Shown in pieces: positions 754 to 24,221 of a stretch of DNA of 64,000 nt (the first letter of the stretch is position 1; each line of letters starts with the position of its first letter). The stretch is from contig MPNC01000004.1 of assembly GCA_002238825.1 (NCBI GenBank), forward strand, positions 5,241 through 69,240, written 5' to 3'. Under the pieces are notes generated by a model. The model had not been told where the DNA came from. It made no database searches and saw only the letters and a program-made list of their open reading frames with translations. Origin of the DNA: SAR202 cluster bacterium bin87. Its GTDB lineage: Bacteria; Chloroflexota; Dehalococcoidia; Lucifugimonadales; UBA3495. Both the position numbers and the translations under genes were made by a program.

Positions 754-1442
754 CTATGGGGCCTGCTGGCTACCAGGCGCATCGAGGTGGCATCGTACGA
801 CCTTGACCGCGTCGGTCAACATGAACGCCACCTGCGCAGCGTGGAACGTGGTCATACAGAGTTCCTGTACATCGGGGTGGTTGTTCATGTGGTCCACGTT
901 GAGGCCGTACCTCTGGAGGTCGTCGAGCGTGATGACGCTGCCATGGCCCAGGTGTTGGTAGTAGCTGGAAATCTGGTCAGCAATATGCTGGCTGGTAGTG
1001 ACCTCAGGCGCATCCGGAGAGCGCGAATAGCTGTCGATCCAACCGCCGAGGGTCAGGCTCGACTCGGAAATGATGTGACGGGCGTCGTGGAATAGGCCGG
1101 GCGGTTGGGACACCAGAGCCATGAGATCTTCGCCGGTTCCCTCGGGGCTGCGCAGGCGCAGCAGCAGTTCGTTGCGCTCGTCCACCACGGCTTGGGCTGG
1201 CACCATCACGGAGCCGCCCATAGTCGGTACGACAACTAGCGGGTTGGTGGGGCTGAGCGAGGCAAAGCCTCCCAAGATGATCAGGTCGGCGGCGCAGGCT
1301 AGCATGGCAGCGGCCGACATGGCCCGCTGGGGCACGAATACCCTGATGTGCGCGTACCGGCCTCTGAGGGCTCTGACGATGGCCTGGGTGGCGGGCAGGG
1401 TGCCGCCTGGGCTGTGGAGAATGAGGTCGAGCTGGCGTTGGT
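754..1442 (-). pseudogene. SDH-family (Clp/SppA-fold) serine protease, C-terminal fragment
   Basis: QLDLILHSPGGTLPATQAIVRAL...RAMSAAAMLACAADLIILG resembles the core of serine-dehydrogenase-proteinase-type proteases. The ORF-track start at 1545 lies in island DNA. The missing N-terminal part is at 49603-50059. Confidence 0.7.
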
Positions 1443-1572
1443 CATGTGCGGCCATTGGCCGGTGAGGACCGGTGTAATGACCGAATTCCCGGTGCGCGCC
1501 GTGGGGATGCCGGTGGAAACGGAGGTTGGGATCGGGAACCGGCATTGCCCGGATAAAGCAGGGGTTTGAGTG

Positions 1573-1668
1573 TATTGAGGGCAGGAGGAAGGTTTTATGG
1601 GCAGGATGGGGAGTTTATGGGCAGGATTTTGAAATTACGGGCAGGTTGCCGAGTTTTTTGGGCAAGTG
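1573..1668 (+). repeat. Iteron-like array R1: 5 units phased at 20 bp (TTWTGGGCAGG)
   Basis: GGGCA cores at 1579, 1599, 1619, 1639 and 1660, each preceded by a T-rich run. The array lies ~130 bp inside the left island junction. Confidence 0.8.
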
Positions 1669-1701
1669 GTGTCGGGCTCTTGGCCGTGTGGGCCGGCGGC
1701 A

Positions 1702-1886
1702 GTGGAGGCTGAAGTTCAGGTCCGATGCCGAGGACGTGGCCCGATTTACCGAGATCCTGCTGTTGCTCCTGCTGCTGTTGATTGCACCTTCCTGGGGTCG
1801 ATCTCACCCGGGGCCGGGAGGCGCCAGGCGGTTGGCCGCTGGTTTGAGAGCCAGTTTAGCACATGGGTGCGTGGGCGGCAAGGCGA
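1702..1886 (+). repeat. Conserved ~180-nt non-coding element, family 2, copy 1
   Basis: Aligns with 2244-2417 (GTGGAGGCTGA...CCCGATTTACCGAG...GGGGTCGATC...GCGCCAGGCGGTTGGCCGC...GAGAGCCAGTTTAG.ACATGGGTGCG.GGCGGCAAGGCGA). Indels break every reading frame. Confidence 0.75.
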
Positions 1887-1931
1887 TGACAGGCGCGGGG
1901 AATCGCGCTTGTAGAGAAGGAGGAACGTACG

Positions 1932-2201
1932 ATGTTGACAGAAACCGTGGTTATCCCTTTCTGGTTTTTTCTCGTACCCTGGCTGACACTGTTGATCGTC
2001 GGTGCCTACACCATGTACCTCGTAGTCACTCCGGCCGCACGAAGTCCGGACCGAGCCAAAGGAACAAAATCCCAGCGAGGAGGAACACAAACGCAAACCC
2101 CCAACCACCCTGGCTCACGTGAAAACGCCTGCTTCCTCGGAGACTGCGCAACCACATCCCCACAGGAACCAACCCAATCAGAACGGAAACAACCCCGATG
2201 A
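1932..2201 (+). CDS. Small single-pass membrane protein (hypothetical)
   Basis: Strong SD (GAAGGAGGA) 7 nt before the ATG; N-terminal TM segment VVIPFWFFLVPWLTLLIVGAY. The tail has low GC3. The overlapping minus ORF 2026-2229 (2 TM, no SD) is an alternative. Confidence 0.35.
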   Translation: MLTETVVIPFWFFLVPWLTLLIVGAYTMYLVVTPAARSPDRAKGTKSQRGGTQTQTPNHPGSRENACFLGDCATTSPQEPTQSERKQPR

Positions 2202-2243
2202 TCTGAACTACTGCGACCTTGTCCAACATTTATCATCAACCTT

Positions 2244-2417
2244 GTGGAGGCTGAGTTTCTGGTCCGCTGCTGAGGAAGTCGCCCGATTTACCGAGGTCCT
2301 GCTGCTGCTGTTGTCACCTTCCTGGGGTCGATCACTGCCCGGGGCCGGGAAGCGCCAGGCGGTTGGCCGCTTGGTTTGAGAGCCAGTTTAGTACATGGGT
2401 GCGGGGCGGCAAGGCGA
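2244..2417 (+). repeat. Conserved ~180-nt non-coding element, family 2, copy 2
   Basis: See 1702-1886. It sits directly upstream of the next SD-led small membrane ORF. Confidence 0.75.
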
Positions 2418-2461
2418 AAACGGGCGATCTGTTTTTGTGACAAAGCCATTAGGAGGCTAAC

Positions 2462-2668
2462 ATGGAAAACCATATCTCCACCATCCTTGGCGCCATTGCC
2501 CTTTGTCTAGGCGGTCTGTACATCCTGGTTTTGATATTGCTCATAGAGATAGAGCGATTACCGCGCAAACTGCAAAACAGGCTGCAAGCACACCAGCGGC
2601 CCACCAAATCCAATAGCGAACCCGAGTCCGACGACGACTCCAACGCCACTGAGCCAGACCGTAATTGA
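2462..2668 (+). CDS. Small single-pass membrane protein (hypothetical)
   Basis: SD TTAGGAGGC 5 nt before the ATG; TM segment ILGAIALCLGGLYILVLILLI followed by an acidic tail. Confidence 0.45.
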   Translation: MENHISTILGAIALCLGGLYILVLILLIEIERLPRKLQNRLQAHQRPTKSNSEPESDDDSNATEPDRN

Positions 2669-2873
2669 TGACGCTCAGAAATATTGAGAGGCCGATACAG
2701 ACCTGGGCAACATCCCACAAAATCCCGGTCAGCACTTCCACAATTTTAGCGTTTATGTCGGGCGACGAAAGGAGTACATCCATGGCGGAACAAGTCACCC
2801 GCGAAGAATTTGATGACCTCAAAAAAACGGGTCGAGGCCATCGAAGCGTGTCTCGCCGTAGAGCCGTTATGGC

Positions 2874-3137
2874 TCACTCTTCTAAAAGCTGAAGCACAGC
2901 GCGAATCTCAACCTGCGCCCAGAATTGGCAAGCCTTCCAATCTTCTTCAGGGACGCAACTGAGCAGTTCACTGAGTTCCGGCGCCCGGTTACGGGCATCA
3001 GCTCTCTCAATAATTCCTTTCGATTCATCAGGCGTCATTAGCGCCAGTATCTCTCCCGGCAAATGCCGATGGGTCAAGTTCGTTCCGAAGGTGCCAGTAT
3101 CAAACGGTGCATTCGGCATCAAGTTCACCTTGGCCAT
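2874..3137 (-). CDS. Hypothetical protein
   Basis: 87-aa ORF with no recognised motif and a weak SD. Confidence 0.35.
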   Translation of the reverse strand: MAKVNLMPNAPFDTGTFGTNLTHRHLPGEILALMTPDESKGIIERADARNRAPELSELLSCVPEEDWKACQFWAQVEIRAVLQLLEE

Positions 3138-3386
3138 AGTTGGGCGTCCTGAGGGTAACAGGTGTGCTGGCCGCCGGGAATACCGACCTAGTCAAGGAAC
3201 TAGCCGACCAGCAGGACCCGCGCTACTGAGAGGCAGCCAATCCCACATTCCGGACCTCTGCAAGGCCAATCCAAACAAGAACTCTTCGTTTCTGCACGCT
3301 CCCGAGAACTCGAAACGTTGTACCTCAGCGATACGTACCGATACTCACTCGGGTCCACCCGACCAGAAAGCAAGGATGGTGAACCA

Positions 3387-3542
3387 ATGGCCTACATAGT
3401 TCTGACCGGCATCGCCGCGGTCGGCGTCATCTGCATGATGGTCGGGCTCTACACCGGCGAACCAGTCACTATCGGCGGCGCCATCGTAGCGCTGCTGGGA
3501 GGTGTCGGCGGGCTGGCGCTGAAGGCCATGACCGGCGACTGA
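3387..3542 (+). CDS. Small membrane protein (51 aa)
   Basis: Internal ATG of ORF 3318-3542, preceded by AAGGATGG. MAYIVLTGIAAVGVICMMVGLY...GGAIVALLGGVGGLALKA gives two hydrophobic segments. Confidence 0.5.
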   Translation: MAYIVLTGIAAVGVICMMVGLYTGEPVTIGGAIVALLGGVGGLALKAMTGD

Positions 3543-3555
3543 ACCGCAGCGGATT

Positions 3556-4176
3556 TTATCGAAACGTCCTTGCTCGTCCCGCGCGCCCGAGATTTGAATG
3601 ACGTGGTGAACTTCCTGCTCTAATCTCAAACTTGCCGAACTCGACCCACGCAACTTCGGATCGGAACAATTCACCAATCTTAGTCAAATCACGGTCGATT
3701 CCGCTACCGGGACGCAAAATCTTAATGTGCGGTTGGTAGTGTCGAGCCCCGAAAGCATTGGTCCAATCTGTTGTTGCCTTCCGGTTCTTGGTTGCTTTGG
3801 CGGTTTCCCTTCGGTACAAGTCTCTTCTCATATCTAAGACGGCACCGATAGCCCGGTTGCGCCTGGTCAGTCGAATTCCCACTGAACGTCGTGCTGGCTC
3901 CAGTTCCGGACGTGGGTTTTCCCCGCCTGGGGCCAACACCATGAAACGCGTTTCCACGGTATCGGCAGCAACCTGTATGGGTCGCGACGTAGAGACCAGG
4001 CCTTGTATGGGTCGCCTGGCCTCGTAAACGGTCAGATGGAGTCGCCGTTGGACCGCTTCGCTTGGGATGTTGCATTCATTGACCAGAAGGTCAGCAATTC
4101 TTTCCTCACATTGTTTAGTGACCCACAATAGCCCGAATACCCTAAAAGGCCGAAATACGGGATGACCAATTGGCAT
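3556..4176 (-). CDS. Hypothetical protein, possible 2H-phosphoesterase (LigT-like) fold
   Basis: RLHLTVYEA and QPHIKILRPG resemble the two HxT/S motifs of LigT (nLHLTLaF / HPHITLLR), but the second motif has K in place of T. SD GGAG is present. Confidence 0.55.
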   Translation of the reverse strand: MPIGHPVFRPFRVFGLLWVTKQCEERIADLLVNECNIPSEAVQRRLHLTVYEARRPIQGLVSTSRPIQVAADTVETRFMVLAPGGENPRPELEPARRSVGIRLTRRNRAIGAVLDMRRDLYRRETAKATKNRKATTDWTNAFGARHYQPHIKILRPGSGIDRDLTKIGELFRSEVAWVEFGKFEIRAGSSPRHSNLGRAGRARTFR

Positions 4177-4234
4177 GAAAGCTCCGACATACTAAGAATA
4201 TGGTCCCAAAGCGGCCTCGCCCGAAAAATGAAAA

Positions 4235-4993
4235 TCACAATCGTAAAGTGTGGGCACTATGACGCTGGCAACGGTCGCTGTTGTGGCCAGTAGTTTTTCC
4301 ACAAACGTTGCCTCGATTATTGACATATTGGCATGTCCAGTCTGGCAGTTCTATTTTCCATCTTGGACACGGAGTCGGTGCGTCAAATTGCGCCAGAGTC
4401 GTTTTTATGCTTTTTCGCCGTCCGACCGTCAGCACTTCGGGTAGCTGGGGCACTGGGTAGTCCGTGTTGATGGTTGCCAAAGCCTCTGGTTTGCCGATTA
4501 TCCAAAGTGCGCTGTTACCCGGGTAGTACCAAGATCGTCCTGCGCCTGCATATAGGATTTCCAGGGTAAGTCCGGATAGCCTTTTTCGCAGGCACTCCGA
4601 CCTGCCGATTCTGCCCGCAAGCTCTTGGACAGCTTTCTCACCGTCGAATCCGCTGTATGCGGCCGTGTAGTAGGGTTGAGGGATGTAAACAGCTGCGTTC
4701 TTCTCGACGCGGGCTGCCCCTTCGTGGTCTATCAAGATGCTGCCGATCCCGAAACTGAACCCCTCACACGGGTAGTGCCTGCGGATGGACCCTGTCGCGA
4801 TGATGCCGAAGCACGGGTTGTTGTCTTCGGTGAAAAGGACACCTTGGTTAGCGTGTCTGAACGCTTCCAGCAGTGCCCGACCGTATGCGGTGAGGCAATC
4901 GCCGTCGTGGAGGCAGCGTTGACGGTAGTCAGTCAGCCCACTGTTGCAGTGGTCCGTTGGACCTGTCCCTGGTTCGTGAGTGAACTGCGGCAT
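4235..4993 (-). CDS. Hypothetical protein with C-terminal Cys/His zinc-binding-like tail
   Basis: 252-aa ORF whose tail reads CPRW...CQYVNNRGNVCGKTTGHNSDRCQRHSAH. No family recognised. Confidence 0.55.
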   Translation of the reverse strand: MPQFTHEPGTGPTDHCNSGLTDYRQRCLHDGDCLTAYGRALLEAFRHANQGVLFTEDNNPCFGIIATGSIRRHYPCEGFSFGIGSILIDHEGAARVEKNAAVYIPQPYYTAAYSGFDGEKAVQELAGRIGRSECLRKRLSGLTLEILYAGAGRSWYYPGNSALWIIGKPEALATINTDYPVPQLPEVLTVGRRKSIKTTLAQFDAPTPCPRWKIELPDWTCQYVNNRGNVCGKTTGHNSDRCQRHSAHTLRL

Positions 4994-5064
4994 TACAACG
5001 TTCTCCCGATGGAAGCTGACTCATTGGCGGCTGTCGTCGTATCTCCACGAATTACACATGGTTT

Positions 5065-6159
5065 TCATTCGTCTGGCTCGATATCGCGAAACATCAGTTT
5101 GCCGTCGACACGGCTGGCATGTACCACCACAGATCCGTTCACCATGGAGCCAAGCCTGTCGTCCACTTCCTCACCCACATTGTTGATTGTCTGATTTTCA
5201 CCGTTTTCGTCCACGACTTCAATCCAGTCGCGGTCTAAGTGCAGGGCGCGCAGTACGCCTCTGATCAGAACATCCTCTCCCTCTGCCGCGACTGTGGACG
5301 ATAAAGCTTGAATTGCTCCGCTGATCGCATATTTGGTGTCGGGCATAAGAACGAGAGGGGCAGGCGAATCCGAAACGGCAATGGTCAACCGGTTGAATTG
5401 CTTACCATTTGGCACTAGGTCTCGTGTTAGCTTGAGGAAGGTCAATCGATAATCAACGTCCGGGACCATTTCGCTCAACATTCCTTCGGGAGAACCGGCG
5501 CACGCCTGCAATATGTCGTAGGCGCCGTCAACGATATCCTTTGGCGTCAACTCGTTGCTCTCAAGCGGCAGTTGCCGCGTTGGTTGGACAGACATGGCGA
5601 ATCGGTAGCTGCCTGGGGCGGCTTGGAATGTCCAAGGTCGATATGCATCTCGTATTTCCTTGCTTGGCTCTCCGCGTCTGCGATGCGGCAGCTGCTTCCA
5701 GTGCTCCACCGTTCGATAGAAGACCGTGGTTATTTTACGAATTTTCGAAGTTACCAAATCTGATGGAGCGCCTCCGTGCATGATTGTTCCCCCACTGAGC
5801 GAAACAATCATCTGGGCGTGGTGCATCTCCGACAGGGCTCGCTGCCACTTCATGGTTTCCAACAAATGCTGCAATTGCTCTCGTGCAAAATCGGGCAAGT
5901 GGCTTGACCCCAAACACCGGTGCGCCAATATGCTTGCTTCATCGAGCTGCATGGCTTTATAGCGCAGCGCAACTGCACTGACCGCGATAATGCCGAGGGT
6001 GCGCGTACTATTCGCGTCAACTCCCTGAAGGGCTTTACCCTCGGCATCTGCAGCCTTTGCATAGAGTTCCATTGCAGCAGAGGATTCCCCACGGCGCGTG
6101 GCAGCTTCCGCGTCGGACGCGAACCGTTCGCTCTCAATGTGGCGCTCCACCCAAGTCAC
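5065..6159 (-). CDS. Hypothetical protein (helical/TPR-like N-terminus)
   Basis: 364-aa ORF starting 2 nt after the stop of the upstream gene (6162), so probably co-transcribed. Confidence 0.6.
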   Translation of the reverse strand: MTWVERHIESERFASDAEAATRRGESSAAMELYAKAADAEGKALQGVDANSTRTLGIIAVSAVALRYKAMQLDEASILAHRCLGSSHLPDFAREQLQHLLETMKWQRALSEMHHAQMIVSLSGGTIMHGGAPSDLVTSKIRKITTVFYRTVEHWKQLPHRRRGEPSKEIRDAYRPWTFQAAPGSYRFAMSVQPTRQLPLESNELTPKDIVDGAYDILQACAGSPEGMLSEMVPDVDYRLTFLKLTRDLVPNGKQFNRLTIAVSDSPAPLVLMPDTKYAISGAIQALSSTVAAEGEDVLIRGVLRALHLDRDWIEVVDENGENQTINNVGEEVDDRLGSMVNGSVVVHASRVDGKLMFRDIEPDE

Positions 6160-6161
6160 GG

Positions 6162-6701
6162 CTACTCCACTTTGCCTAGACGTATCAATTTAGATTGAAA
6201 ACCAACCACGCCGGCCATGGCAGGGAGGTTGCTGTTTCCTGATGCCGCCTGCTGCAACTTGTCGTTTAATCTTCTGGAGATCGTTGCTGCGTTTCCACTG
6301 TCAACGCCTGACACTTCGAGACGGATGAAACGCTCCCAATCGTGAGGAGTGGCATCAAGGGGGGCCACATAGTAATCTGCTCCAGTTTCGGTTTCGGCGC
6401 GCCGAACTGCCACCAATGGACCCATCAACTCGACTGCGGCCAGGACACACGCATAGGCGCCCGCCTCAGTGGCGTCCGTCGTGTTGGCCCAAGCGTTTTT
6501 GATGCGTTCATCGGTAGAGGACCATATCGCCAAAGCGTTTAGCTGGTCTGCGTCCCAGCCGATTGTGAAATCGACCGGGGAGCAGTGGTGGCGGTCAAGG
6601 CACACTCGAGCCCCTTCGGTCCAATGTTCTGCAATCGAGTCGGTAAGGCCGTGATGCCGCTGCGACATGTCGGCTATTGGCAGGATCGGTTGGGACATCA
6701 A
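6162..6701 (-). CDS. Hypothetical protein, possible restriction-endonuclease-like (PD-(D/E)XK-like) core
   Basis: 179 aa. TEAGAYACV...TGADYYV...IRLEVSGV resembles an E...D...ExK layout, with S where K is expected. This is tentative. Confidence 0.5.
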   Translation of the reverse strand: MMSQPILPIADMSQRHHGLTDSIAEHWTEGARVCLDRHHCSPVDFTIGWDADQLNALAIWSSTDERIKNAWANTTDATEAGAYACVLAAVELMGPLVAVRRAETETGADYYVAPLDATPHDWERFIRLEVSGVDSGNAATISRRLNDKLQQAASGNSNLPAMAGVVGFQSKLIRLGKVE

Positions 6702-7037
6702 TAGTTCCTGGGATCAAAATCGGTTGAGGAACGCATCGCGCTGGCGTTTTGTGTATGGCCATTATGGCAAGGTGGTTAGAACTAGGTACATGGCCACGCC
6801 GAATGCCGACAAGATTCCCAGACCCATCCCGACCCGTACAGACATGGGCATCTGTTGACGGAAGGGGCGCGGAGTCCGATGCCTAATTCGGGCTGCACGG
6901 GGTTTCTGTTTCCTGCTCATCAAACAACTCCTGAGGCTGCGCATTTCGCGGCCCCTAAGGGTTGACATGAGCATTAGGCAGGTAGTATCCTAAGCCGGTT
7001 TTTGCTTGTGTCAGCTCTTTCAGAGCCGCACGAATCC

Positions 7038-7068
7038 GCCGGGGTGTAAAAGGCGCCCCGGCTTTTTT
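7038..7068 (+). terminator. Rho-independent terminator
   Basis: GCCGGGGTG-loop-CGCCCCGGC followed by TTTTTT. Confidence 0.7.
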
Positions 7069-7361
7069 GCGTGAATGATCGATTATTGAGTTATGGCGAT
7101 ATTGTTGCTCCGAGCCCCGAGTGGATGGGCGGTAGGATATCAGCCGGGAGGCTCGCCGGGAAGACCAGCCACAGGAAAGATGCCGAAGGTGGGTGTACGA
7201 TTGGAACTGGGCGAAAGAATGGAGCCAATCGGTCCGAAGAGCGAAAACGGTCGCCCTATCTCGTGAGCTTCACTATCGTAGCTCGCTCATCCCGTCCTCT
7301 CTGCTCGGACGGGATGCATAAGGCGCATTCACAGGCGTAACATCACGAAGGAAGGCGTCGC

Positions 7362-7541
7362 ATGCCAACCCTGTTTCCCGGTGTCAAAGTTTTCCTGGCC
7401 GTCTTGGCTGTTTTGGGGATTGTGGGCTTCGTCGGACTCGTCGTGGGCGTGTCGCGCCTGTACCTGGCGGCCACCGTCCTTGCCATGGTCTGGGCCGTTT
7501 GGGCGATCGTAGGCGCGGTCATGGCGAGATTGGACAAATGA
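7362..7541 (+). CDS. Small two-TM membrane protein (59 aa, below ORF-track cutoff)
   Basis: SD GAAGGAAGG 7 nt upstream. Product is MPTLFPGVKVFLAVLAVLGIVGFVGLVVGVSRLYLAATVLAMVWAVWAIVGAVMARLDK. Confidence 0.55.
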   Translation: MPTLFPGVKVFLAVLAVLGIVGFVGLVVGVSRLYLAATVLAMVWAVWAIVGAVMARLDK

Positions 7542-7613
7542 ACGAGTGAGGCCCTGATGTTCAGGTGTTGGCGGCCTTCTCGTCCGCCGCATCCACGGCC
7601 GGCGTTATCGCCG
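7538..7613 (+). repeat. 76-bp repeat, copy 1
   Basis: About 93% identical to 8404-8481 (AATGAACGAGTGAGGCCC...GGCCTTCTCGTCCGCCGCATCCACGGCCGGCGTTATCGCCG). Contains an ACGAG..AGGCC / GGCCT..CTCGT stem. Confidence 0.8.
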
Positions 7614-7739
7614 ACCGGGTGAACAGGTTGGGCGGCGGGCGGAACCTCGGACCGCCCCACCCGCCGGACGTTGACCACGCCGGGGCTATTGCCCCGACTG
7701 CCCGTCCTGGATTGTCGCCCCGTCTTCGCAATTTCCACC

Positions 7740-8309
7740 TCACCGCCAGTTGCCACGGTCGAACAGGTCGATGTAAATGTTTTCGTAAAGGTCGAGTTCG
7801 CCCGGTCTGTCATCCCCCGCGTAGCGCACGTAGGCCCCCACTCGAACCAACATCGGCTCAGTCAATTTGTCAAAGTCCACGTAATCAGGCATTGGGATCT
7901 CGCAGGCCCGGCCATCCTCATAAGCGTGATGGTGATGCTCGTCCTGGGGGTAGATTTCGCATGAAGTCCCGAACGACCAACCTTGATACTCGACGTTCAC
8001 ATCCCACTGACTGCGTTGGAACTGCCACCCGTCAGGCGGCGGCGGGGCATTGTTCACTATCGTTACAACCAATAAGGAATGATCTGATTCGTGATAGTAC
8101 GCCTCCGTGTGCAGGGAAACCTGGCCGGCCAACCCGAGAGCCGGATAGGGCGTAGGAGTCGGCGTCGGATGAATATGGTCAGTGCCGTCCTCGTGGGCTT
8201 GGACTATGTTGGCGACGGGTTGGGGCGACCATAAACCAGTGATGGCTATGACTCCCATCAATGCCAGGGCAGCCGCTATCGCCATGATCCCAAGGGTTTT
8301 GCGTGGCAT
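7740..8309 (-). CDS. Secreted/anchored His-rich hypothetical protein
   Basis: Start moved to MPRKTLGIMAIAAALALMGV (SD GAAGGAG 7 nt upstream). Signal-anchor present; contains HHHH and PTPTPTP. Confidence 0.6.
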   Translation of the reverse strand: MPRKTLGIMAIAAALALMGVIAITGLWSPQPVANIVQAHEDGTDHIHPTPTPTPYPALGLAGQVSLHTEAYYHESDHSLLVVTIVNNAPPPPDGWQFQRSQWDVNVEYQGWSFGTSCEIYPQDEHHHHAYEDGRACEIPMPDYVDFDKLTEPMLVRVGAYVRYAGDDRPGELDLYENIYIDLFDRGNWR

Positions 8310-8403
8310 GATTCGCTCCTTCGGTTGGGCCTGCCCCATAATAGAGGCCTCTGTCCCAAAATGCATCCCAAAACGGCTATTATGGGACAAAGCCCCTCCT
8401 CAT

Positions 8404-8481
8404 AATGAACGAGTGAGGCCCCTGCTGTTCAGGTGTCGGTGGCCTTCTCGTCCGCCGCATCCACGGCCGGCGTTATCGCCG
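8404..8481 (+). repeat. 76-bp repeat, copy 2
   Basis: See 7538-7613. Confidence 0.8.
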
Positions 8482-8570
8482 GCTGGACAGGAAAGGCCCG
8501 AGCGAAAAGCATGGCCGTGGTCTTGCCATAGACCAGCGCTGATTACGGTGGGAGGATTGGCTATCCACGG

Positions 8571-8948
8571 TCACAGTCCCACCTCGACCGCCAACGCTAT
8601 CGGCACCAGCGCCAGCGTCAGGATGAAGAATGCGAATGCCGCGATGGTGGCGAGCCAGCTGACCACACCTATCATGGTCTGGCCAAAACTGCGGTCACGA
8701 AGCCGATTATAGACCGTGCACAGCAGGGCTGCCGTCACGGAACAGAAGATGACCAGCGACGCCATCAGGACTCCGGGATTGACGGCGGCTCCCACCCCGA
8801 GGTCGATGTTGAAGCCGGCGATGTTCACGCCTTCGAGGAGCTGCACCACCTTGACGCTGCTGCCCACGGCGGCCATCAACAAGGCCGAGATGGATGCCAG
8901 CACCAGGTTGCAGGCCATGAGGTCGTAACGGGCGGGAGTTTGGTTCAC
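8571..8948 (-). CDS. Membrane protein (about 4 TM)
   Basis: GTG start with AGGAG 8 nt upstream; hydrophobic throughout. Confidence 0.6.
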   Translation of the reverse strand: MNQTPARYDLMACNLVLASISALLMAAVGSSVKVVQLLEGVNIAGFNIDLGVGAAVNPGVLMASLVIFCSVTAALLCTVYNRLRDRSFGQTMIGVVSWLATIAAFAFFILTLALVPIALAVEVGL

Positions 8949-9483
8949 GACTCGGGCTCCTGGTGTGGGATTGAGGTCAGCGGCTTGGCGTGGCTGGCGA
9001 ATGGCGGTTAGTGGATTGGCCCGAACGTGGTCAACGATAAGATAGTTCCTCTTCGCATGGTCGCCATGGAGTCAGTAGTGGGCGCGCGTGTACCGGCGGG
9101 CGCCGCGGCCGCGGCGGTTTGTCCGGTATTTGGCAGGATGCCACACCGGACCACGGAACAGCGCCTTGCGCCGTCTGGAAGGTTGCCGTGCTTTGCTCTC
9201 GCCAGCGGGGACGACACTGCCCGACCCGGTACGGGAAACGATGGTGGACTTGCCAGGTTCGGTGGGTGCGGTCCGCAACCGTTCACGCAGCCAGTCAAAA
9301 GCAGCTTTCATGGCGGTACCTCGGGAGCGGCTGTTTTGCCCGGGCGCTGCCGATGCCCGGGCGGTCCGCTGTTTTTAGTTTCCAGACACGCGGCCCGCCA
9401 TGTCAACGAATACCTGCACCAATTACGACTGGTTTGAGCGGGTCACAACCTCCGGACCGAATCACGGGTTTCGCGACGCTGCA

Positions 9484-9894
9484 TCAGCTGGCCAGGCTGG
9501 CGCCGGTCTCGTAAGTGAACTGCCACCCGAGCCGTGCGATGATCCAAAGGCCGTAGGCGGAAGTGGCTGAGGCGACGGCGATCGTCCAGGCTGTCACGAA
9601 CATCGGCACCGCGACCGCAGCCAGAGATAGCACAGCGAGGGCCGTGGGGCCGGCGACCAGGAACGTCACCAGCAGGGCGACGGAGACCTGTTTTTGAAGG
9701 CTCCAGGACCTGGCGGAGGCCACGTCTGTAGCCAGGCTGGTGCGGCAGTGACGCCACGCCCGGGCGGTCCAGAGGAGCATGGTCGGCTGCAGCAGATGAG
9801 CCAGGTGCCATGCAGTCCACGGCAGTAATGTGGCGTCGGTGGTCGTGAGGGTGGCTATGATGCTCAAGAGCACGACGAACGAGGCGGTGTCCAT
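9484..9894 (-). CDS. Membrane protein
   Basis: Start at MDTASFVVLLSII with AGGAGG upstream; several TM segments. Confidence 0.55.
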   Translation of the reverse strand: MDTASFVVLLSIIATLTTTDATLLPWTAWHLAHLLQPTMLLWTARAWRHCRTSLATDVASARSWSLQKQVSVALLVTFLVAGPTALAVLSLAAVAVPMFVTAWTIAVASATSAYGLWIIARLGWQFTYETGASLAS

Positions 9895-10162
9895 ACGACC
9901 TCCTGTTGGGTGTTGAAAAACAGCCCGAGGAGGTTGCACGAGTGGCCCTGCGACCTGTTATAATCGGTCGTGGACTGTGCGCCTCCTCGGGCGCGGTCTG
10001 TGCGCCCTTCATGGGCGCGGTTTGGGGGCCGTTACTCGTTAGCCTTGGAAGCGTTGGAGTGGCGGCCACTTTATTTCATTGGTATCGCATCATCCCTGGC
10101 CCTAGTTGGGCATCCTGATGGTATCAGGTTTGCTCGCCGCCGGGAACACCGAGCACAGAAAA

Positions 10163-10201
10163 CGCGCAGCACCGGTTTGCCGGTGCTGCGCGTTTGTCAT
10201 T
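10163..10201. terminator. Stem-loop, possible bidirectional terminator
   Basis: CGCGCAGCACCGG-TTTG-CCGGTGCTGCGCG, flanked by an A-run upstream and a T-rich tract downstream. Confidence 0.5.
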
Positions 10202-10298
10202 TTGTGACCTGAGGGCGGCGCCGTGCTGTGAGTACAACCCGGTGCGGTTTGCGTTTGCCCGGCCCGGCCGATGAGGCTTTCCGTCCGGAAGACCCTGC

Positions 10299-10328
10299 TT
10301 GACATATCGTCAACCCGGCGCGTATAAG
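10299..10328 (+). promoter_or_regulatory. Sigma70-like promoter candidate for the giant gene
   Basis: TTGACA, 18-nt spacer, TATAAG; about 60 nt upstream of the ATG at 10390. Confidence 0.4.
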
Positions 10329-10389
10329 CGCGTCCGGCCCCGCAAACAGGCAGGCACTCGCTCATGAACACGCCAGAGGATGAAACGCC

Positions 10390-13300
10390 ATGACCAGAAC
10401 GCAATTACCGCGCACCCGTCTTGTACTTCTTGGATTGACTGCCCTGGTGGCGATGCTAGCCATCGGGGCTTTGCTTTGGGGTGGTTCGTTCGTCGGGACG
10501 TCCTCGGCCCAGGCGCCGGACACGCCGCCGGACCCGGACGCGCCGGCGGTATCGGACGGGGAGTGCGGGGTTCTGTTCACCAGCATTCCGTACAACATCC
10601 CGCTGGGCGAGACCAAAGAGTTCCGCTGGCGGTACGAGAACGTCGACGTCGGCACGCTGATCATCCACTCGCCGGACCCGGACATTGCTCGCATTACCGA
10701 CAACACGGGCACATCGGTGTCGATGCGCGGCGAGAGCCGCGGGGTCGGCGAGATCACGCTATCGGCGCTGTGTGTGAACGAAGCCCAGAAGGGGCAGCGC
10801 ATAGCCGTATCGTCTCCGGTGGTGGTCGACAACGCGGACACGTCCGAGGCGCACGAATGGCCGCCGGTGGATGGCGGCGTCACGGGCCAGCAGGAGGAGA
10901 ACGCGCCCGATCTTGAGGTGCTGAGTCCGCTGGTGATTCCCAACCCTGCAACCGAGAAGAGCAACGTCAGGGTCGGCGTGCAGGTCCACAACGAGGGCGA
11001 CCAGCCGGCGCCGGCCACGACCGTCACGTTCTACCGGTCCACGGACGCCGTCATTACTCGGCGAGACACCAGCCTGGCGACCTACAACGTGCCGATCCTG
11101 TTGCAGTTCAGGCACCAGGCCTTCTTGTATCGGTTCACGGCGCCCGAGGTGAACCGCCGGACCACGTTCTACTACGGAGCGTGCGTCGCGGCCGTGAACG
11201 GCGAGGCCGACACCACCAACAACTGCTCGAAGGCCGCGACCCTGACGGTGAATCCGGAAACCGTAAACCCGCCGGTCACGGCGCCGGAGCGTCCGAACAT
11301 CAAGGCCTACTGGTCGGGCACCGGGTCGGGCGGTCGCTACGCCGAGGCCGAGTTCGAGCGGGTGGCTGACGACGAGGACTATTATCATTCCTACGCGGTG
11401 ACCACGCTCTGCGTCGGCAGAACCTGCTCGTCCACCAGCACGTCAGTGGAGACCATCGTTGACGACACCCCCGACGACTGCAACGAGCTCAACGACGACG
11501 ACTGCTACACCACAACGGAGCGCTACGTGTCGTTCATGACGCTGGGGCCGTCCAGCAGCGCGACGATCACGTTCTACGCCCGGGCGTGCAAGACCGGCAA
11601 CGTCTGCTCGGCCTATGCGTCCAGCTCGGTGCGGCACACCACCCTGCCGCAGGTGCCCACGCCCTCCGGGCTGCGGGTGACCGGCGTTACCGGCAGCAGC
11701 GTGTCGTTGTCGTGGAACGCCATATCGGGCGCCAGTGGCTACAGGGTGTTCTACTGGCGTACCGGCTGGAACACGTGGCGGGTCGCGGAAACCCTGACCG
11801 GCACGAGCCACACCCAGAGGGGGCTGAGCGCCGGCGTGCAGTATTACTTCATGGTGCGGGCCCGGGGCGACGGCGTGACGTACTTCAACAGCTACGGCAA
11901 CGCGTCGTCGTCGGTATCGGCGACCCCGACGAGACCAGTCACCTTCACGGTGTTCAACTTCTCGCCGAACCCAATTTACGCCGGCGGAACCAGCAACGTC
12001 TGGACGGTGCAGAACGGCGTGTCGAGCGTCTACATGGACGTGGACTACGCGGTTGGGAGCAGAAAGGACTCGTCCGGCGGGATCAACGTCCAGGTGCTGA
12101 ATTCCAGCAATCGGGTCACGTCCACCGTGGTGGTCGACAACGAGAACGACAGCGGTACGTTATCGGGCGTGTCCGCCGGTTCCCGCATTCGGGTCATGCT
12201 GGAAAATGACGCCTGGGACCAGCATGCGTCGCTCGTGACGCTCACGTTCCATTCCGGGAGCAGCGACAGCGCTCCCGTAATCGCCCGGGCGACGCTCCAG
12301 AAGGAACGGGAGCTGAGCCGGCCGGAAGAGAACGGCAGCCCGACGATTGAAAACACGCGCTCGGGCGCCGTCACCCTGCACTGGAGCCGGGGAACGGAGT
12401 ACGCTGGCCAGCGGCCGGACCACTACCTGTTGGTCATACCCGGCGCGAGCGGTACCTATTCCAGCGGGCTGAAGGTGGCTGACGCCGCCGACGTCGACCA
12501 CCGGATCTCGTCCGCGCGCAGCAGGAATTTGGAGGGGACCCACACCGCCAGCGTGCGCCACTGCAACGCGGCCGGCGGGTGTTCCGATGCTCTTCCCATC
12601 ACCTTCACACTGCCGGCCTACGTGCCGCCCCCACCGCCCGGTGACGTGTTCAACTTCTCGCCGAACCCAATTTACGCCGGCGGGACCAGCAACGTCTGGA
12701 CGGTGCCGAGCAGCGTGTCGAGCGTCTACCTGGACGTGGACTACGCGATTGGACAGAACAAGGACCTGACGGGCGTGATCAACGTTCAGGTGCTGGACTC
12801 CCGCAACCGGGTCACCTCCACGGTGGAGGTCAACAACGAGAACGACAGCACGACGTTGTCGGGCGTGTCCAGGGGTTCCCGCGTTCGGGTCATGCTGGAG
12901 AACGATGCCTGGGACCTGCATGCGTCGTCCGTGACGCTGACGTTCCACTCCGGGACCAGCGATAGCGGAGCTGAGATAGCCAAGGCGGTCGTCCAGAAGG
13001 AACGGAGGCCGAGCCAGGTCCCGCCGGACGGCGACCCCACGGTCAACAACATGTGCCCCGGCACCGTCACCCTGCATTGGAAGCGGGGGACGGTGCACGC
13101 TGGTCAGCGGCCAGACCACTATCGAGTGGTGATACCAAACCCGACCAATCGCAACGCCGCTCCGCTGTACCAGAACCTGAACGTGTCCGACGCCAACGAC
13201 CCCGTCAGCCTCCCAATCCGGGCTTCGCGGGACAATGGACTGGAGGGGACCCATACCGCCCGGGTGAGCCACTGCAACGCGGCGGGCGGGTGTTCGCTGC

Positions 13301-16300
13301 CGACGAGCATCAGTTTTACGATGCCGAAATGCACGACCGGCCCGCAGCCCCGTCCCGTATTCAACTTCTCGCCTAACCCGATTCGCGCAGGCGGGACCAG
13401 CACCGTATGGACGGTGCCGAGCGGAGTATCGAGCGTATACCTGGACGTGGACTACGCGACCGGGAGCATAAAGGACTCGTCCGGCGGCATCAACGTCCAG
13501 GTGTTGGATTCCCGCAACCGGCCTACGTCGACCGTGGCGGTCGGCAGTGAGGGTGACAGCGGGACGCTGGACGACGTGCGCGCCGGCTCCCGCGTGCGGG
13601 TCATGCTGGAAAATGACGCCTGGGACCAGGATGCGTCGCTCGTGACGCTCACGTTCCATTCCGGTGCCAGCGCCACCGGTCCCGCAATCGCCCGGGCGAC
13701 GCTCCAGAAGGAGCGGGAGCTGAGCCGGCCGGTAGCGAACGGCAGCCCGACGATTGAAAACACGCGCTCGGGCGCCGTCACTCTGCACTGGAGCCGGGGG
13801 AGGGAGTACGCTGGCCAGCGGCCGGACCACTACCTGTTGGTGATCCCTGGCGCGAGCGGCGCCTATTCCAGCGGGCTGAAGGTGGCTGACGCCGACGACG
13901 TCGACCACCGGATCTCGTCCGCGCGCAGCAGGAATGTGGACGGCACCCACACCGCCAGCGTGCGCCACTGCAACGCGGCCGGCGGGTGTTCCGATGCTCT
14001 GAGCATCACGTTCACGCTGCCGGCCTTTGTGACGTCGCCGCCGCCGACGCGGCCAATCCCGCCGACCATGGTTCCATCTCCTCCACCCCCAACGAATATG
14101 CAATTGGGGATTCACGGTAGCCGCTGGGACGCTCTTTCCCTGACGTATTCCAACAGTTCGTGGAGCCGGAGCAACGACCACTACTATCAGTTCCAGTTGC
14201 AGCAGCGAAGTGGGAGCAGTTGGTCGGCAGTCGGCACCCAGGTTGTTGGCACAGATGCCAGCACCACCGTTGTCGTCAACTTCCCCAACCAGAGGGGAGA
14301 TACCGAGACGTTCCGAGTCTTCGGCCAGCGTTGCACCAACAGTGGATACACGGTATGCGGCAACTTCGCCACCTCCGCAACGTTCGTTCTGCCCGCTCGT
14401 CCTCCCGCGCCAAAACCGGAGTCGTTGGCCGTGGACCCTCGCGTTGCGGGTACTCTGAACGCCACTTTTCGAACCCAAAGTTGGAGTTGGCAGAACGCTC
14501 CCCCCGGCCATTTCTATCAATTGCAGTTGCGAGAGCCCTCCACCGGTACCGTGGTGGACACCGTGGATGTGTCGCTGGCGAACCCGGGCACAATCTCGGA
14601 GGGATTCACCAACGTACCGTCGAACAAGGAATATCAAACCCGGGGGCGGCGTTGCACCTACGACACGAACGGGGTTTACACTCGCTGTGGTCCGTGGGGC
14701 GCGTCGGTTGGTATGCCGCCACCCCCGGTGATCACCAGGTTAGCGCCGCACGCCACCTCAAAAACCGCGGCCAACCTCACGTACACGTCGGGCAACCTGC
14801 CTGGCGTCAACAGCAGTATCCATCAATTTGAACGGGAGAAGCACGACGGCACAAACTGGGTCAGTCCGGCCATCCGTCACAGCGGCAGGTCTCCGCACGT
14901 CCTGACCGGCCTTGATGAAGGCGGGAGATACCGGGTCCACGGCCGGCGTTGCCTGGATCTCACCAGCAATTTCTGCGGCTACTGGTCGCCCCATTCGGAA
15001 ATCACGCTGAACAAACTCCAGAAACCGGAAGTCACGGTGATGCCGGTTGCGGCCGGCACCACGCCTGGCCAGCGTGAAGTGACCATCGAATGGCCGAACG
15101 ATCCATTGGCGAGCAATTACCGCGTCAATACGACGACCGTTGGGGCCACTAACCTTGCGCCGGTTCTCGTCGGTGCGACGTACTCGGCCAATCTGCGCCT
15201 GGAGGACGAATTGGACACGATGTCCGCCGAGTATTCGTTCGAAGTCGTTGCCGAAAACCCCGGCAGCAACTACGCCGACAGCGAACCGGCCAAAGTCAAG
15301 ATTGTCCGTGACCCCATCAAACGGGCTGACGGAGACAGCCGTAACGTAACCGGGGGTCAGGCCGCCATCACCTGGCACGCCCAACCGGGAGGATCAAACT
15401 TCTGGGTGTGGTACTGGCAATTGGGCCACAACGACGATGAGCAGGTTTGGTCGGGACACGACGACTTCATTTCTGAACAGAAGTCCAAGGCCAACACCAA
15501 CACCGCCCACACGGTGGGTGGACTGACGCAGAAATCAGTCTATGCGCTCCAGCTCCGGTGGACGGAGGGCGATACCGAGGTATTTTCCGGCACATTCTCT
15601 TACGTCTGGCCGCATGACGACTTTCCCAAGCGGGGACTGGGCGACCAGGGACGTGTGGCGTCGTATCCCTCATTCGGGCATTGGCCCAACCGGACCTACA
15701 CCTACCGTTTCTGCGCAGATACGTTCGACCCCTTCCAGGCCGAATGGTCGCACGCAATCAACGAAGCTTTCAACACCTGGGGTGCGGCGACTGACGGTTA
15801 TGTGAACATCGTTCGCAGCCCCGATGCCTGCACCGTGGGAGATCTGCGGCGCGGGCCCACATGGTTGAAGATGACCAACATGGTCGCAACGTCCCTGAAC
15901 GTCAACGAGGTCTACATGGTGAACGATGATGATTGGTCGTTCTTGCATAAGCTCAACCTGCTGCTGTTCATCGACGATCTCCAGGGAATTTGCGGGTTGA
16001 CCACGCCGTCGGGGTGCGCGATTTCCCGGGCATACGGACCCACCCAGAGCGCCAAGACGGAACTGAGCAACGCCGCGGGGTCGAAGAACGCGGTGGACAT
16101 CCTGTTCCGCGGCAGCAAGTTCAGTATGGGTGGTACATTCGTGCGTCCCACGGATACGTATTTCAACCAGTGCGATGGCGCCCGGGACACGAATGTGCAT
16201 CATTCCTATACCACGGCATTGCACGAGGCGGGACACGCGCTCGGGTTGTCGGGAAGGCTCATTGTCGCCCCCAACGATCTCTACGACGACATCGCGTGGG

Positions 16301-16503
16301 CCGTCTTCACCAGGAACGAACAGAGACTGGCGGAATTGTTCAACGACATCGGTAAAAACAGCCTCTATGAGGGTGGGCATCCCTCGGTCCCGATGGCGGT
16401 CATGAATTATGACCATGTTCCCGGAGCGTCTGGTGAACCGGACTGTTATCCCCACGCCTTCGACGTGATGGCAGTCTGGGCGGTCTATCAAACGGTGAAA
16501 TGA
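10390..16503 (+). CDS. Giant secreted multidomain protein (CARDB, FN3, three ~230-aa tandem modules, C-terminal metzincin-like protease)
   Basis: Signal peptide ...GTSSAQA. CARDB-like block (...VHNEGDQPAPATTVTFYRS...GEADTTNNCS). FN3 block (PSGLRVTGVTGSSVSLSWNA). HEAGHALGL zinc motif with a downstream AVMNY Met-turn. Confidence 0.9.
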   Translation: MTRTQLPRTRLVLLGLTALVAMLAIGALLWGGSFVGTSSAQAPDTPPDPDAPAVSDGECGVLFTSIPYNIPLGETKEFRWRYENVDVGTLIIHSPDPDIARITDNTGTSVSMRGESRGVGEITLSALCVNEAQKGQRIAVSSPVVVDNADTSEAHEWPPVDGGVTGQQEENAPDLEVLSPLVIPNPATEKSNVRVGVQVHNEGDQPAPATTVTFYRSTDAVITRRDTSLATYNVPILLQFRHQAFLYRFTAPEVNRRTTFYYGACVAAVNGEADTTNNCSKAATLTVNPETVNPPVTAPERPNIKAYWSGTGSGGRYAEAEFERVADDEDYYHSYAVTTLCVGRTCSSTSTSVETIVDDTPDDCNELNDDDCYTTTERYVSFMTLGPSSSATITFYARACKTGNVCSAYASSSVRHTTLPQVPTPSGLRVTGVTGSSVSLSWNAISGASGYRVFYWRTGWNTWRVAETLTGTSHTQRGLSAGVQYYFMVRARGDGVTYFNSYGNASSSVSATPTRPVTFTVFNFSPNPIYAGGTSNVWTVQNGVSSVYMDVDYAVGSRKDSSGGINVQVLNSSNRVTSTVVVDNENDSGTLSGVSAGSRIRVMLENDAWDQHASLVTLTFHSGSSDSAPVIARATLQKERELSRPEENGSPTIENTRSGAVTLHWSRGTEYAGQRPDHYLLVIPGASGTYSSGLKVADAADVDHRISSARSRNLEGTHTASVRHCNAAGGCSDALPITFTLPAYVPPPPPGDVFNFSPNPIYAGGTSNVWTVPSSVSSVYLDVDYAIGQNKDLTGVINVQVLDSRNRVTSTVEVNNENDSTTLSGVSRGSRVRVMLENDAWDLHASSVTLTFHSGTSDSGAEIAKAVVQKERRPSQVPPDGDPTVNNMCPGTVTLHWKRGTVHAGQRPDHYRVVIPNPTNRNAAPLYQNLNVSDANDPVSLPIRASRDNGLEGTHTARVSHCNAAGGCSLPTSISFTMPKCTTGPQPRPVFNFSPNPIRAGGTSTVWTVPSGVSSVYLDVDYATGSIKDSSGGINVQVLDSRNRPTSTVAVGSEGDSGTLDDVRAGSRVRVMLENDAWDQDASLVTLTFHSGASATGPAIARATLQKERELSRPVANGSPTIENTRSGAVTLHWSRGREYAGQRPDHYLLVIPGASGAYSSGLKVADADDVDHRISSARSRNVDGTHTASVRHCNAAGGCSDALSITFTLPAFVTSPPPTRPIPPTMVPSPPPPTNMQLGIHGSRWDALSLTYSNSSWSRSNDHYYQFQLQQRSGSSWSAVGTQVVGTDASTTVVVNFPNQRGDTETFRVFGQRCTNSGYTVCGNFATSATFVLPARPPAPKPESLAVDPRVAGTLNATFRTQSWSWQNAPPGHFYQLQLREPSTGTVVDTVDVSLANPGTISEGFTNVPSNKEYQTRGRRCTYDTNGVYTRCGPWGASVGMPPPPVITRLAPHATSKTAANLTYTSGNLPGVNSSIHQFEREKHDGTNWVSPAIRHSGRSPHVLTGLDEGGRYRVHGRRCLDLTSNFCGYWSPHSEITLNKLQKPEVTVMPVAAGTTPGQREVTIEWPNDPLASNYRVNTTTVGATNLAPVLVGATYSANLRLEDELDTMSAEYSFEVVAENPGSNYADSEPAKVKIVRDPIKRADGDSRNVTGGQAAITWHAQPGGSNFWVWYWQLGHNDDEQVWSGHDDFISEQKSKANTNTAHTVGGLTQKSVYALQLRWTEGDTEVFSGTFSYVWPHDDFPKRGLGDQGRVASYPSFGHWPNRTYTYRFCADTFDPFQAEWSHAINEAFNTWGAATDGYVNIVRSPDACTVGDLRRGPTWLKMTNMVATSLNVNEVYMVNDDDWSFLHKLNLLLFIDDLQGICGLTTPSGCAISRAYGPTQSAKTELSNAAGSKNAVDILFRGSKFSMGGTFVRPTDTYFNQCDGARDTNVHHSYTTALHEAGHALGLSGRLIVAPNDLYDDIAWAVFTRNEQRLAELFNDIGKNSLYEGGHPSVPMAVMNYDHVPGASGEPDCYPHAFDVMAVWAVYQTVK
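11950..14030 (+). repeat. Three tandem ~0.7-kb intragenic repeats
   Basis: Units start at 11950, 12645 and 13357 (VFNFSPNPI.AGGTS...). Units 1 and 3 are near-identical in their second halves. Confidence 0.9.
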
Positions 16504-20004: not shown

Positions 20005-20123
20005 ATGGGGCACGACCACTGCTTGGACATTCCGGAATTCGCCGTGTATAGTGCGCGGGCCCGCTTCAGGCGGAGTTCACCATCCGACCCCTATTGGCGG
20101 TCACAACACCAAAGGACGTAAAC

Positions 20124-20882: not shown

Positions 20883-21041
20883 GGGACGGTCGCACTCCCC
20901 CGCATCCATGACCCGGCTTGAGGCTATCCCTGGACCCCAAGCCGGGTCGATGATTCCGTGGTCCGCCCCGAGCTCCCCACCGCCGAGCTCCCACCGTGAG
21001 ATCCCGAATAGGCAATCGCCTACTGGCACCGGGCGTAAGAC

Positions 21042-21287
21042 ATGATTGTTGAAACGACAATGCGAGTTGAGAGCATAGGGCCCGAGGAATCGCGGGTCCT
21101 GTGGGGAGATTTGGAACTCCACGTGATGAGGACGCCCACCGGACGGTTCCGGGTGTACCCGAACTTCCATCATCCCGAGTTCAGCAGGTCCTTCAGCGAC
21201 TTCACGCGGGCCCTGGGCGAGGCGGTCCAGCACTGCATCGAGCGGGCGCGGACCGACGGCTCCTTATCAGCAGGGCCGCCGACGTGA
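21042..21287 (+). CDS. Hypothetical protein
   Basis: 81-aa ORF whose stop overlaps the GTG of the next ORF (GTGA). Confidence 0.4.
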   Translation: MIVETTMRVESIGPEESRVLWGDLELHVMRTPTGRFRVYPNFHHPEFSRSFSDFTRALGEAVQHCIERARTDGSLSAGPPT

Positions 21288-22351: not shown

Positions 22352-22396
22352 CGAGGCCGACTCCGTAAATGAGTCGGCCTCGTCGTTTCCGTTTTT
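22352..22396 (+). terminator. Rho-independent terminator without an obvious upstream CDS
   Basis: CGAGGCCGACTC-CGTAAAT-GAGTCGGCCTCG followed by TCGTTTCCGTTTTT. Confidence 0.55.
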
Positions 22397-22563
22397 CGTG
22401 AAATGCGGGCATCACCACGTCTTGACGTCCCTGTTATTATGCGTCGGGTTTTTTGAGGCGCGCCGTCACAGCACTCGGAAAAGCGCTCCGTTGCGGCAAA
22501 TCCGGCGGCGCAATCAAAGACCTGTCAGACCATGCAAGAGGAGAGATTGAATTGCATTCATCG

Positions 22564-24186: not shown

Positions 24187-24221
24187 CGAGGCTCAAACAG
24201 CAACGGAGCGCATTCCGCGAC

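Follow-up and report, generated by a model that had tools for sequence, protein, structure and literature searches.

Phased repeat arrays in a SAR202 cluster bacterium are subterminal repeats of a 48-kb transposon with an IS4/IS5-type transposase

Background

In the inverted repeat of IS903 the transposase is bound by the inner part, while the outer bases have a catalytic role. Elements of the IS903 group are about 1.05 kb long and give rise to 9-bp duplications (PMC3281130). Transposon ends holding several sites are already known as a type of feature, and the transposase of the locus described here falls within the equally known IS4/IS5 superfamily. For a relative of the small IS5/IS903 elements this type of element is unusual, considering its length (11-48 kb), its Tn7/Mu-like multi-site ends and the constant pairing of its transposase gene with a Cas4-like nuclease gene.

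The locus is situated in the window, i.e. the whole stretch of 64,000 nucleotides of DNA that was analysed, in which an earlier note had pointed out two arrays of short repeats, R1 and R2, just inside the junctions of an island. The arrays were proposed to be phased sites for cooperative protein binding tied to island borders, with integrase arm sites, iterons, centromere-like sites and transposase subterminal repeats as the options, and no binding protein was named. The general reading is supported by the present study while three of the four options do not fit, and a candidate binder can now be put forward, the SWIM-DDE transposase encoded at 29635-31371 on the minus strand.

Results

Repeat arrays and limits of the 48-kb element

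Reading of both regions bore out the five units of R1 and the six units of R2 and their phase of about 20 bp (Table 1). The GGGCA cores are located at 1579, 1599, 1619, 1639 and 1660 in R1 (spacing 20, 20, 20 and 21) and at 49473, 49493, 49513, 49533, 49553 and 49571 in R2 (spacing 20, 20, 20, 20 and 18), and the plus strand carries every unit of both arrays. In the whole window TTWTGGGCA occurs 12 times against 0.85 expected, a number of copies reached in 0 of 100 dinucleotide-preserving shuffles of the window, and the arrays R1 and R2 are far beyond chance. A weight-matrix scan, which the earlier note had suggested, was performed with a 19-nt matrix built from the array units (consensus approximately GAATTTWYGGGCAAG) and revealed matches of at least 18 bits in four clusters of the window only, R1, R2 and two further clusters, R3 and R4. 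Rfam scans, which covered the window together with 14 array-bearing loci, gave only a cobalamin riboswitch, tRNAs and rRNA and no RNA family at the arrays, and on this ground a reading of the arrays as RNA repeats was dropped. Almost all array-adjacent genes are without a Pfam family and no binder could be named from these neighbours.

Besides R3 and R4, the earlier note had overlooked an inverted unit at 1541-1557, a repeat of TCGGGAACC and an element of 863 bp. The inverted unit forms an imperfect terminal inverted repeat together with the tip of R2, and the final R2 unit (…TTTTTGGGCACCGCC) is itself the terminus of the canonical left end of a 48-kb element. The tips read GGCATTGCCC… and …GGGCACCGCC and an identical 9-mer is found on both outer sides; its left copy was located by searching for the sequence beyond the R2 tip and is directly followed by GGCATTGCCCGGATAAAG. 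The true junctions are 1540/1541 and 49580/49581, with R1 beginning 28 bp inside the former and R2 running up to the latter, and the distances proposed before, about 130 bp for R1 and about 20 bp for R2, were wrong.

Table 1. Features of the two elements and their surroundings, in positions of the window
Feature	Position	Strand	Remarks
R1, 5 subterminal units	1569..1668	+	20-21-bp phase; oriented opposite to adjacent tip
R2, 6 units	49463..49580	+	all in orientation of its own tip
R3, left end of 863-bp element	52345..52447	-	tip and three same-orientation units (20, 20, 19 bp), then one opposite (+) unit
R4, right end of 863-bp element	53140..53205	.	two minus units, then terminal unit on plus
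48,040-bp transposon	1541..49580	-	canonical orientation has transposase gene forward; inverted tips, 9-bp duplication, empty sites, restored ORF
Target-site duplication TCGGGAACC, left copy	1532..1540	.	9 bp; single copy in empty-site contigs
Target-site duplication TCGGGAACC, right copy	49581..49589	.	9 bp
Terminal unit GGCATTGCCCGGATAAAG, canonical right end	1541..1557	-	inverted relative to R1; pairs with R2 tip
Protease gene, 3' part	754..1540	-	ClpP/SDH-type serine protease, interrupted
Protease gene, 5' part	49590..50059	-	joined ORF with 1540..754
DDE transposase	29635..31371	-	N-terminal SWIM zinc finger (~160-200); DDE_Tnp_1 at residues 366-543; candidate unit binder
Cas4-like PD-(D/E)XK nuclease	28902..29549	-	directly downstream of transposase gene; Pfam PDDEXK_1 2.8e-10
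166-aa conserved protein	31340..31840	-	just upstream of transposase; homologues of 29-40% identity, same position in both Dehalococcoidia elements
191-aa protein	31888..32463	-	conserved in two of three elements
216-aa protein	7740..8390	-	conserved in three of three elements, 36-57% identity
Non-autonomous derivative, 863 bp	52344..53206	+	perfect terminal inverted repeat GGCCTTGCCCGTAAAATC; 116-aa ORF
116-aa ORF of small element	52596-52946	-	
Duplication CATGTGGGGA, left copy	52334..52343	.	10 bp
Duplication CATGTGGGGA, right copy	53207..53216	.	10 bp

The element is inserted in a protease gene of this sponge-symbiont bacterium, and in the 3' part of this gene the apparent ATG (1543-1545) falls within the transposon tip. 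Deletion of 1541-49589 joins 50059..49590 to 1540..754 and restores 1257 nt, i.e. 418 codons and a stop, with no internal stop. The Pfam/NCBIfam match of the restored protease is no longer than that of the truncated form, and the interruption therefore rests on the continuity of the ORF together with contigs in which the site is empty. These were found in related strains, represented by public sponge-metagenome runs from other samples at 90-99% identity to the window. Contigs of three runs match 900-1537/1540 and then continue with GCCTGGTCCCGTTGGTTGAGTTTGTTAAGA or TGATCCCGTTGGTTGAG…, which is the window from 49590 onward, and in the same contigs the match starts again at 49581, with TGGGGATGCCGGTGGAAACGGAGGTTGGGA (window 1502-1531) in front of it; one contig of 3832 nt spans 900..1540 joined to 49590..52215. 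The empty site holds one copy of the duplicated target. For the small element an empty site was found in four runs, where the contig joins 52332/52343 to 53206/53217 with a skip of 873 nt, 11 nt fitting both sides. Since contigs of related strains skip each of them, both elements are discrete insertions, polymorphic between populations that are related. The window is 100% identical in several sponge-metagenome contigs of ~147-365 kb and the 48-kb element is 100% identical in every contig carrying it, hence there is no sign of recent movement in that population. Some 4 kb to the left of where the window begins, the contigs L001 and L002, which are otherwise identical, differ by a ~3.4-kb indel with small genes including an HNH endonuclease, which is another polymorphic insertion beside the window.

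The left terminus of the small element is the 18-bp sequence GGCCTTGCCCGTAAAATC and its right terminus is the perfect reverse complement, and from these perfect termini it follows that the motif unit represents the inner part of a terminal inverted repeat whose outermost bases are GGGCAAGGCC. The repeat unit of the arrays is accordingly a copy of this inner part; the outermost GCC is found only at the tips and internal units are without it. The target duplication is 10 bp here and not 9 bp. An 841-nt contig of run X10 carries 52460-53072, including the 116-aa ORF, at ~94% identity and with both flanks different, and the ORF thus also occurs outside the ends of the small element in a related strain. 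Between the big and the small element, at 51647-52144, there is a 165-aa ORF with a partial match to Nmad3 (nucleotide-modification-associated).

Architecture of the ends

The offsets of the units were measured from the tips with the transposase gene taken as forward. At the left end the tip is followed by units in the orientation of the tip, with offsets of 5, 23, 43, 63, 83 and 103 nt in the window element (R2), 5, 23, 43 and 63 in the element of contig DAOUJD010000094.1, 6, 24 and 44 in locus L067 and 5, 25, 45 and 64 in the small element. At the right end the tip is followed by a gap of ~29 nt and then by units of opposite orientation, with offsets of 34, 54, 74, 94 and 115 nt in the window element (R1), 33, 53 and 73 in the element of OZ244805.1 and 35 in the small element. 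All subterminal units consequently point one way along the element and the two ends are structurally different; this direct orientation is a conserved feature of the family. The earlier description of the arrays as direct rather than inverted thus holds as a family trait for the subterminal units, but not for the tip unit 1541-1557. The offsets are conserved across elements with differing neighbour genes, the tip motif of the family is GGCNNTGCCC and the inverted repeats begin with GGC (tips GGCCTTGCCCGTAAAATC, GGCGTTGCCCAAAAAGTC and GGCGGTGCCCAAAAATTC).

Iterons and type II/Ib centromeres typically consist of direct repeats about two helical turns apart in two or more clusters, and the arrays might on this ground belong to an integrated plasmid-like element, as the iterons of its replication origin or as centromere-like sites for its partition. 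The limits of the arrays however coincide exactly with the insertion junctions, an element of 863 bp is bounded by the same arrays, and no Rep, ParA/ParM or ParB/ParR family was recognised in any scanned or called gene, all of which makes such a role extremely improbable.

Transposase, nuclease and other conserved genes

The transposase matches Pfam DDE_Tnp_1 (PF01609) with 3.9e-20 and 72.9 bits, the cut-off being 23, and a comparison of 19 homologues showed the CxC…CxH motif, D371 and D447 to be invariant and E508 to be at least 90% conserved, while the SWIM family PF04434 was matched in relatives of the transposase. No curated IS family model attains its cut-off for this protein; the best is NF033579 (IS5_2) with 104.2 bits against a cut-off of 140, and the others score lower. 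The AlphaFold model, with a mean pLDDT of 46.6, is too poor to define DNA-binding domains, and a PDB sequence search gave no significant match for the nuclease or the transposase profile. No inverted repeats of its own, of the kind an unrelated nested IS might have, were found around the DDE gene.

The nuclease matches Cas4 models below their cut-off, and at four other loci it adjoins the DDE gene or lies close to it. The 166-aa protein and the 216-aa protein both gave no Pfam match. Among the Pfam matches of scanned or called genes there is neither an AAA+ regulator (TnsC) nor a target selector (TnsD/TniQ, CRISPR), and the only ATPase found among the scanned or called element genes is the Septu PtuA described below.

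Relatives in other genomes

When one genome per species was scanned for three units at 20-bp phase, 31 loci were found against ~0.004 expected by our own estimate. About one third of the 31 are plain 20-mer tandem repeats and the remaining loci, in Dehalococcoidia, Acidobacteriota, Arthrobacter and Halobacillus, have a conserved core and variable spacers. The earlier note had also suggested looking for a co-occurring recombinase in relatives, and two Dehalococcoidia contigs found by their arrays alone, OZ244805.1 and DAOUJD010000094.1, carry transposases of 55-63% identity. In OZ244805.1 an 11.1-kb insertion splits dctM (tips GGCCTTGCCC, 9-bp duplication CCTCCGAGG) and in DAOUJD010000094.1 a 12.4-kb insertion splits comEC (tips GGCGTTGCCC, 9-bp duplication TGTCCAGAT), so that four insertions show four different flanking duplications, TCGGGAACC, CATGTGGGGA, CCTCCGAGG and TGTCCAGAT. 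Common to all three large elements are the transposase (~60% identity over ~530 aa), the nuclease (54-75%) and the 166-aa and 216-aa proteins. An IS630-family insertion is present near the right end of the OZ244805.1 element, and in the DAOUJD010000094.1 element a tip-like unit (…TTCGGGCAAGGC) stands right after the homologue of the 216-aa gene.

These elements also bear on the proposal that the arrays are arm-type sites of a tyrosine or serine integrase and that the island is an integrative element or a tandem accretion at an att site. Direct arrays at both ends and the tandem-looking succession of R1-R4 ends would be expected from accretion at a single att site, an HTH/ImmA-like gene is found near one Dehalococcoidia array, and near the left end of the OZ244805.1 element (locus L064, 3542-4084) a 180-aa ORF has the N-terminal SAM-like domain, and only this domain, of a phage integrase. 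The flanking repeats of 9-10 bp are however unrelated in the four insertions and share no common core, the targets were found within three different ORFs, those of the protease, dctM and comEC, the ends are tips of an inverted repeat, the precomputed Pfam matches of the genes called across the 48-kb element include no integrase catalytic domain, and the conserved gene is a DDE transposase. An integrase is therefore very unlikely to be the binder, and the differing duplications, intragenic insertions and inverted tips do not suit iterons or centromere-like sites either. Transposase subterminal repeats, the fourth option, are favoured by the inverted tips, the differing duplications and the conserved DDE transposase.

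Further relatives of the transposase and nuclease were found at other loci. In L067 (transposase of 57% identity) the nuclease is directly downstream and a matching left end is present 9 kb upstream, and in the distant L112 (36% identity) the nuclease is also directly downstream of the transposase; at least ten transposase and nuclease homologues agree in the length of their longest contig, which we take as a sign that they lie on the same contig. The transposase family comprises 794 cluster representatives at an E of 1e-30 or better, and a metagenome scan gave 235 transposase relatives, mostly from soils, where most SWIM-DDE loci are without this exact motif near the gene. Loci L085, L104 and L127 have ends similar to those of the window element, L104 without a definable duplication.

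An all-against-all comparison of the ORFs around arrays of different phyla revealed the 216-aa protein as the only common neighbour. In Acidobacteriota, eight loci (L033, L042, L046, L053, L054, L056, L057 and L058) have the same core (…TTTTTGGGCAAG) at 20-bp phase, as have the arrays of three viral contigs (L009, L015 and L018). Each of these acidobacterial and viral loci has a tip-like unit TTTTTAGGCAAAGCC, often followed by a hairpin CCCCTGAGGGG, and both end types are present; no transposase was found in the DNA fetched around them (8 kb for the acidobacterial loci). When viral contigs were scanned for a two-unit pattern, 13 loci were obtained, several of them showing a '<' then '>>' layout; these 13 did not serve as evidence because their contexts are inconsistent (terminase, excisionase).

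The conserved small proteins raise a further explanation, in which the units are operators of a regulator of the element (the 166-aa, the 191-aa or the HTH_73 protein at 33069-33293) that controls end-proximal promoters or transposition immunity, the transposase reading the tips only. Three small proteins are conserved with the transposase, R1 is situated between divergent genes, some acidobacterial arrays are followed by a TTGACT hexamer and the internal units lack the terminal GCC, which would all agree with such a role. The units are on the other hand copies of the inner tip, the part which the transposase would have to bind, the offsets from the tips are conserved despite the differing neighbour genes, and the 863-bp derivative retains arrays but none of the conserved small proteins. 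As a full account of the arrays this explanation is unlikely; an operator role for the internal units alone, or as a second function, is possible.

Cargo and surroundings

Most of the genes between R1 and R2 are without a family. At 44876-47478 a PtuA-like AAA_15/AAA_21 ATPase (PADLOC PtuA, 6.6e-36) is followed by a PtuB/HNH-like protein, a pair that appears to be a Septu defence system among the cargo of the transposon. The region 10390-28019 encodes a block of very large proteins of secreted type, with fn3, CARDB, LRR and PD40/WD40-like repeats, including a 2037-aa ORF with three internal repeats of ~700 nt and two genes (22453-24186 and 26397-28019) that have long DNA stretches of 74-79% identity in common; these giant repeat proteins are eukaryote-like, of a kind typical of sponge symbionts, and lie inside the transposon. 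Inverted repeats of ~130 nt (40236-40365 and 41312-41440, 82-93% complementary) enclose ~950 bp of the 48-kb element and contain weak motif-like matches in their arms, and 40236-41440 may be another small mobile or MITE-like insertion. The 216-aa gene is flanked by direct repeats of 67-78 nt (7537-7618 and 8404-8486, 93-95% identical).

From ~54.4 kb to the right end of the window the sequence is core genome, with the cobalamin riboswitch (54463-54704, 94 bits) upstream of a cob operon in which two Uma2-family genes are interspersed. Dispersed palindromic repeats, GTCATTGCGAG…CGAGATTGCC, occur in both orientations in this core-genome part (54086-54376, 58321-58411 and 59536-59678), around the riboswitch and inside the cob operon. 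The window contains no tRNA genes.

Discussion

The study established the insertion of the 48-kb element, its exact limits and polymorphism, its target duplication, the architecture it shares with its relatives and the genes linked to it. R1 and R2 are very probably the subterminal arrays of a 48,040-bp transposon inserted in a ClpP/SDH-type protease gene with duplication of TCGGGAACC, their units being bound by the transposase. That the arrays are transposase-binding subterminal repeats is the most likely reading considering the identity of the units with the inner tip and the conservation of their offsets. We infer the identity of the binder, the cooperativity of binding and the role of the nuclease; rivals for the binding of the units are the conserved 166-aa or 191-aa protein and a host factor.

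In the mechanism we propose, the SWIM-DDE transposase of the element would bind each unit and, as the 20-bp spacing corresponds to two helical turns, the bound protomers would be placed on one face of the DNA and could form a cooperative synaptic complex. Only the tip copies would be cleaved and joined, which would give the staggered 9-bp duplication. By analogy with TnsA in Tn7 one may speculate that the Cas4-like nuclease cuts the second (non-transferred) strand. The unequal arrangement of the two ends would give them separate identities, as in Tn7 and Mu, and the 863-bp derivative with its R3/R4 ends would be moved in trans.

What was an unexplained island is in this way defined as a mobile element, for which exact ends, the target duplication and an empty-site allele are known and a candidate machinery can be named, and all that it carries may from now on be regarded as transposon cargo. 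A functional pairing would represent a second, independent cut-and-paste machine of a nuclease and a DDE transposase, and a compact system in which the setting of end identity by repeated end sites could be studied. With the end motif one also has a simple probe for further such elements in metagenomes. A wider proposal, in which we have less than even confidence, is that the elements constitute an undescribed family of large-cargo transposons in Chloroflexota, and probably in Acidobacteriota and others, where a two-enzyme SWIM-DDE/Cas4-like cut-and-paste machinery might have evolved independently of TnsA/TnsB, the arrays might encode end identity, and, in sponge symbionts, eukaryote-like surface proteins and defence systems might be moved between genomes.

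The literature searched holds no description of a DDE and Cas4-like transposon or of this element family, and the combination of a Cas4-like nuclease, a SWIM finger, 11-48 kb of cargo and direct 20-bp arrays appears to be undescribed in that literature and unnamed in databases. Among eukaryotic elements, Mutator-like, hAT and CACTA transposons likewise have short transposase-binding motifs repeated subterminally, MuDR-type transposases have a SWIM zinc finger and Mutator shares the 9-10-bp duplications. The element described here is however bacterial, has an IS4/IS5-type catalytic domain and shows strict 20-bp phasing, and the comparison of homology with these groups covered the SWIM motif.

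Compared with Tn7 and Mu, the likeness consists in several site copies per end of which only the outermost is at the cleavage point, in two differing ends and in a large cargo including a defence system, and for Tn7 also in a gene for a nuclease of PD-(D/E)XK fold adjoining that of the DDE transposase (TnsA and TnsB in Tn7). The transposase is nevertheless of the DDE_Tnp_1 (IS4/IS5) type and not rve/TnsB or MuA, the nuclease is PDDEXK_1/Cas4-like with no rve or TnsA family matched, neither an AAA+ regulator (TnsC/MuB) nor a target selector was recognised, duplications measure 9-10 bp against 5 bp in Tn7, and the subterminal sites are direct along the element where those of Tn7 and Mu are mirrored. 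The multi-site, unequal ends are a functional resemblance only to Tn7-like transposons.

With IS5/IS903 the elements share the DDE_Tnp_1-type catalytic domain, and both the best curated model (IS5_2) and the best annotated tblastn match in a plasmid collection, ISEc35, belong to the IS5 family. The identity of ISEc35 to the transposase is 27% and confined to the catalytic domain, and the ISEc35 inverted repeats, GGCGTTGTTGCTCAAATC and GGCCTTGTTGATCAAATC, resemble the tips found here (GGC start, GGCSTTG….AAATC). The 9-bp duplication of the IS903 group is found again in TCGGGAACC, CCTCCGAGG and TGTCCAGAT, with 10 bp in the small element. Different from IS5/IS903 are the additional N-terminal SWIM zinc finger, the length (48.0, 11.1 and 12.4 kb against ~1 kb), the presence of cargo and of four or more conserved genes where IS5/IS903 have a transposase only, the linkage to a Cas4-like nuclease and to two or three other conserved genes, and the 4-6 extra site copies at 20-bp phase per end in place of a single inverted repeat. 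The division of the IS903 inverted repeat into an inner and an outer part would, by analogy, match the difference between the tips and the internal units of the arrays.
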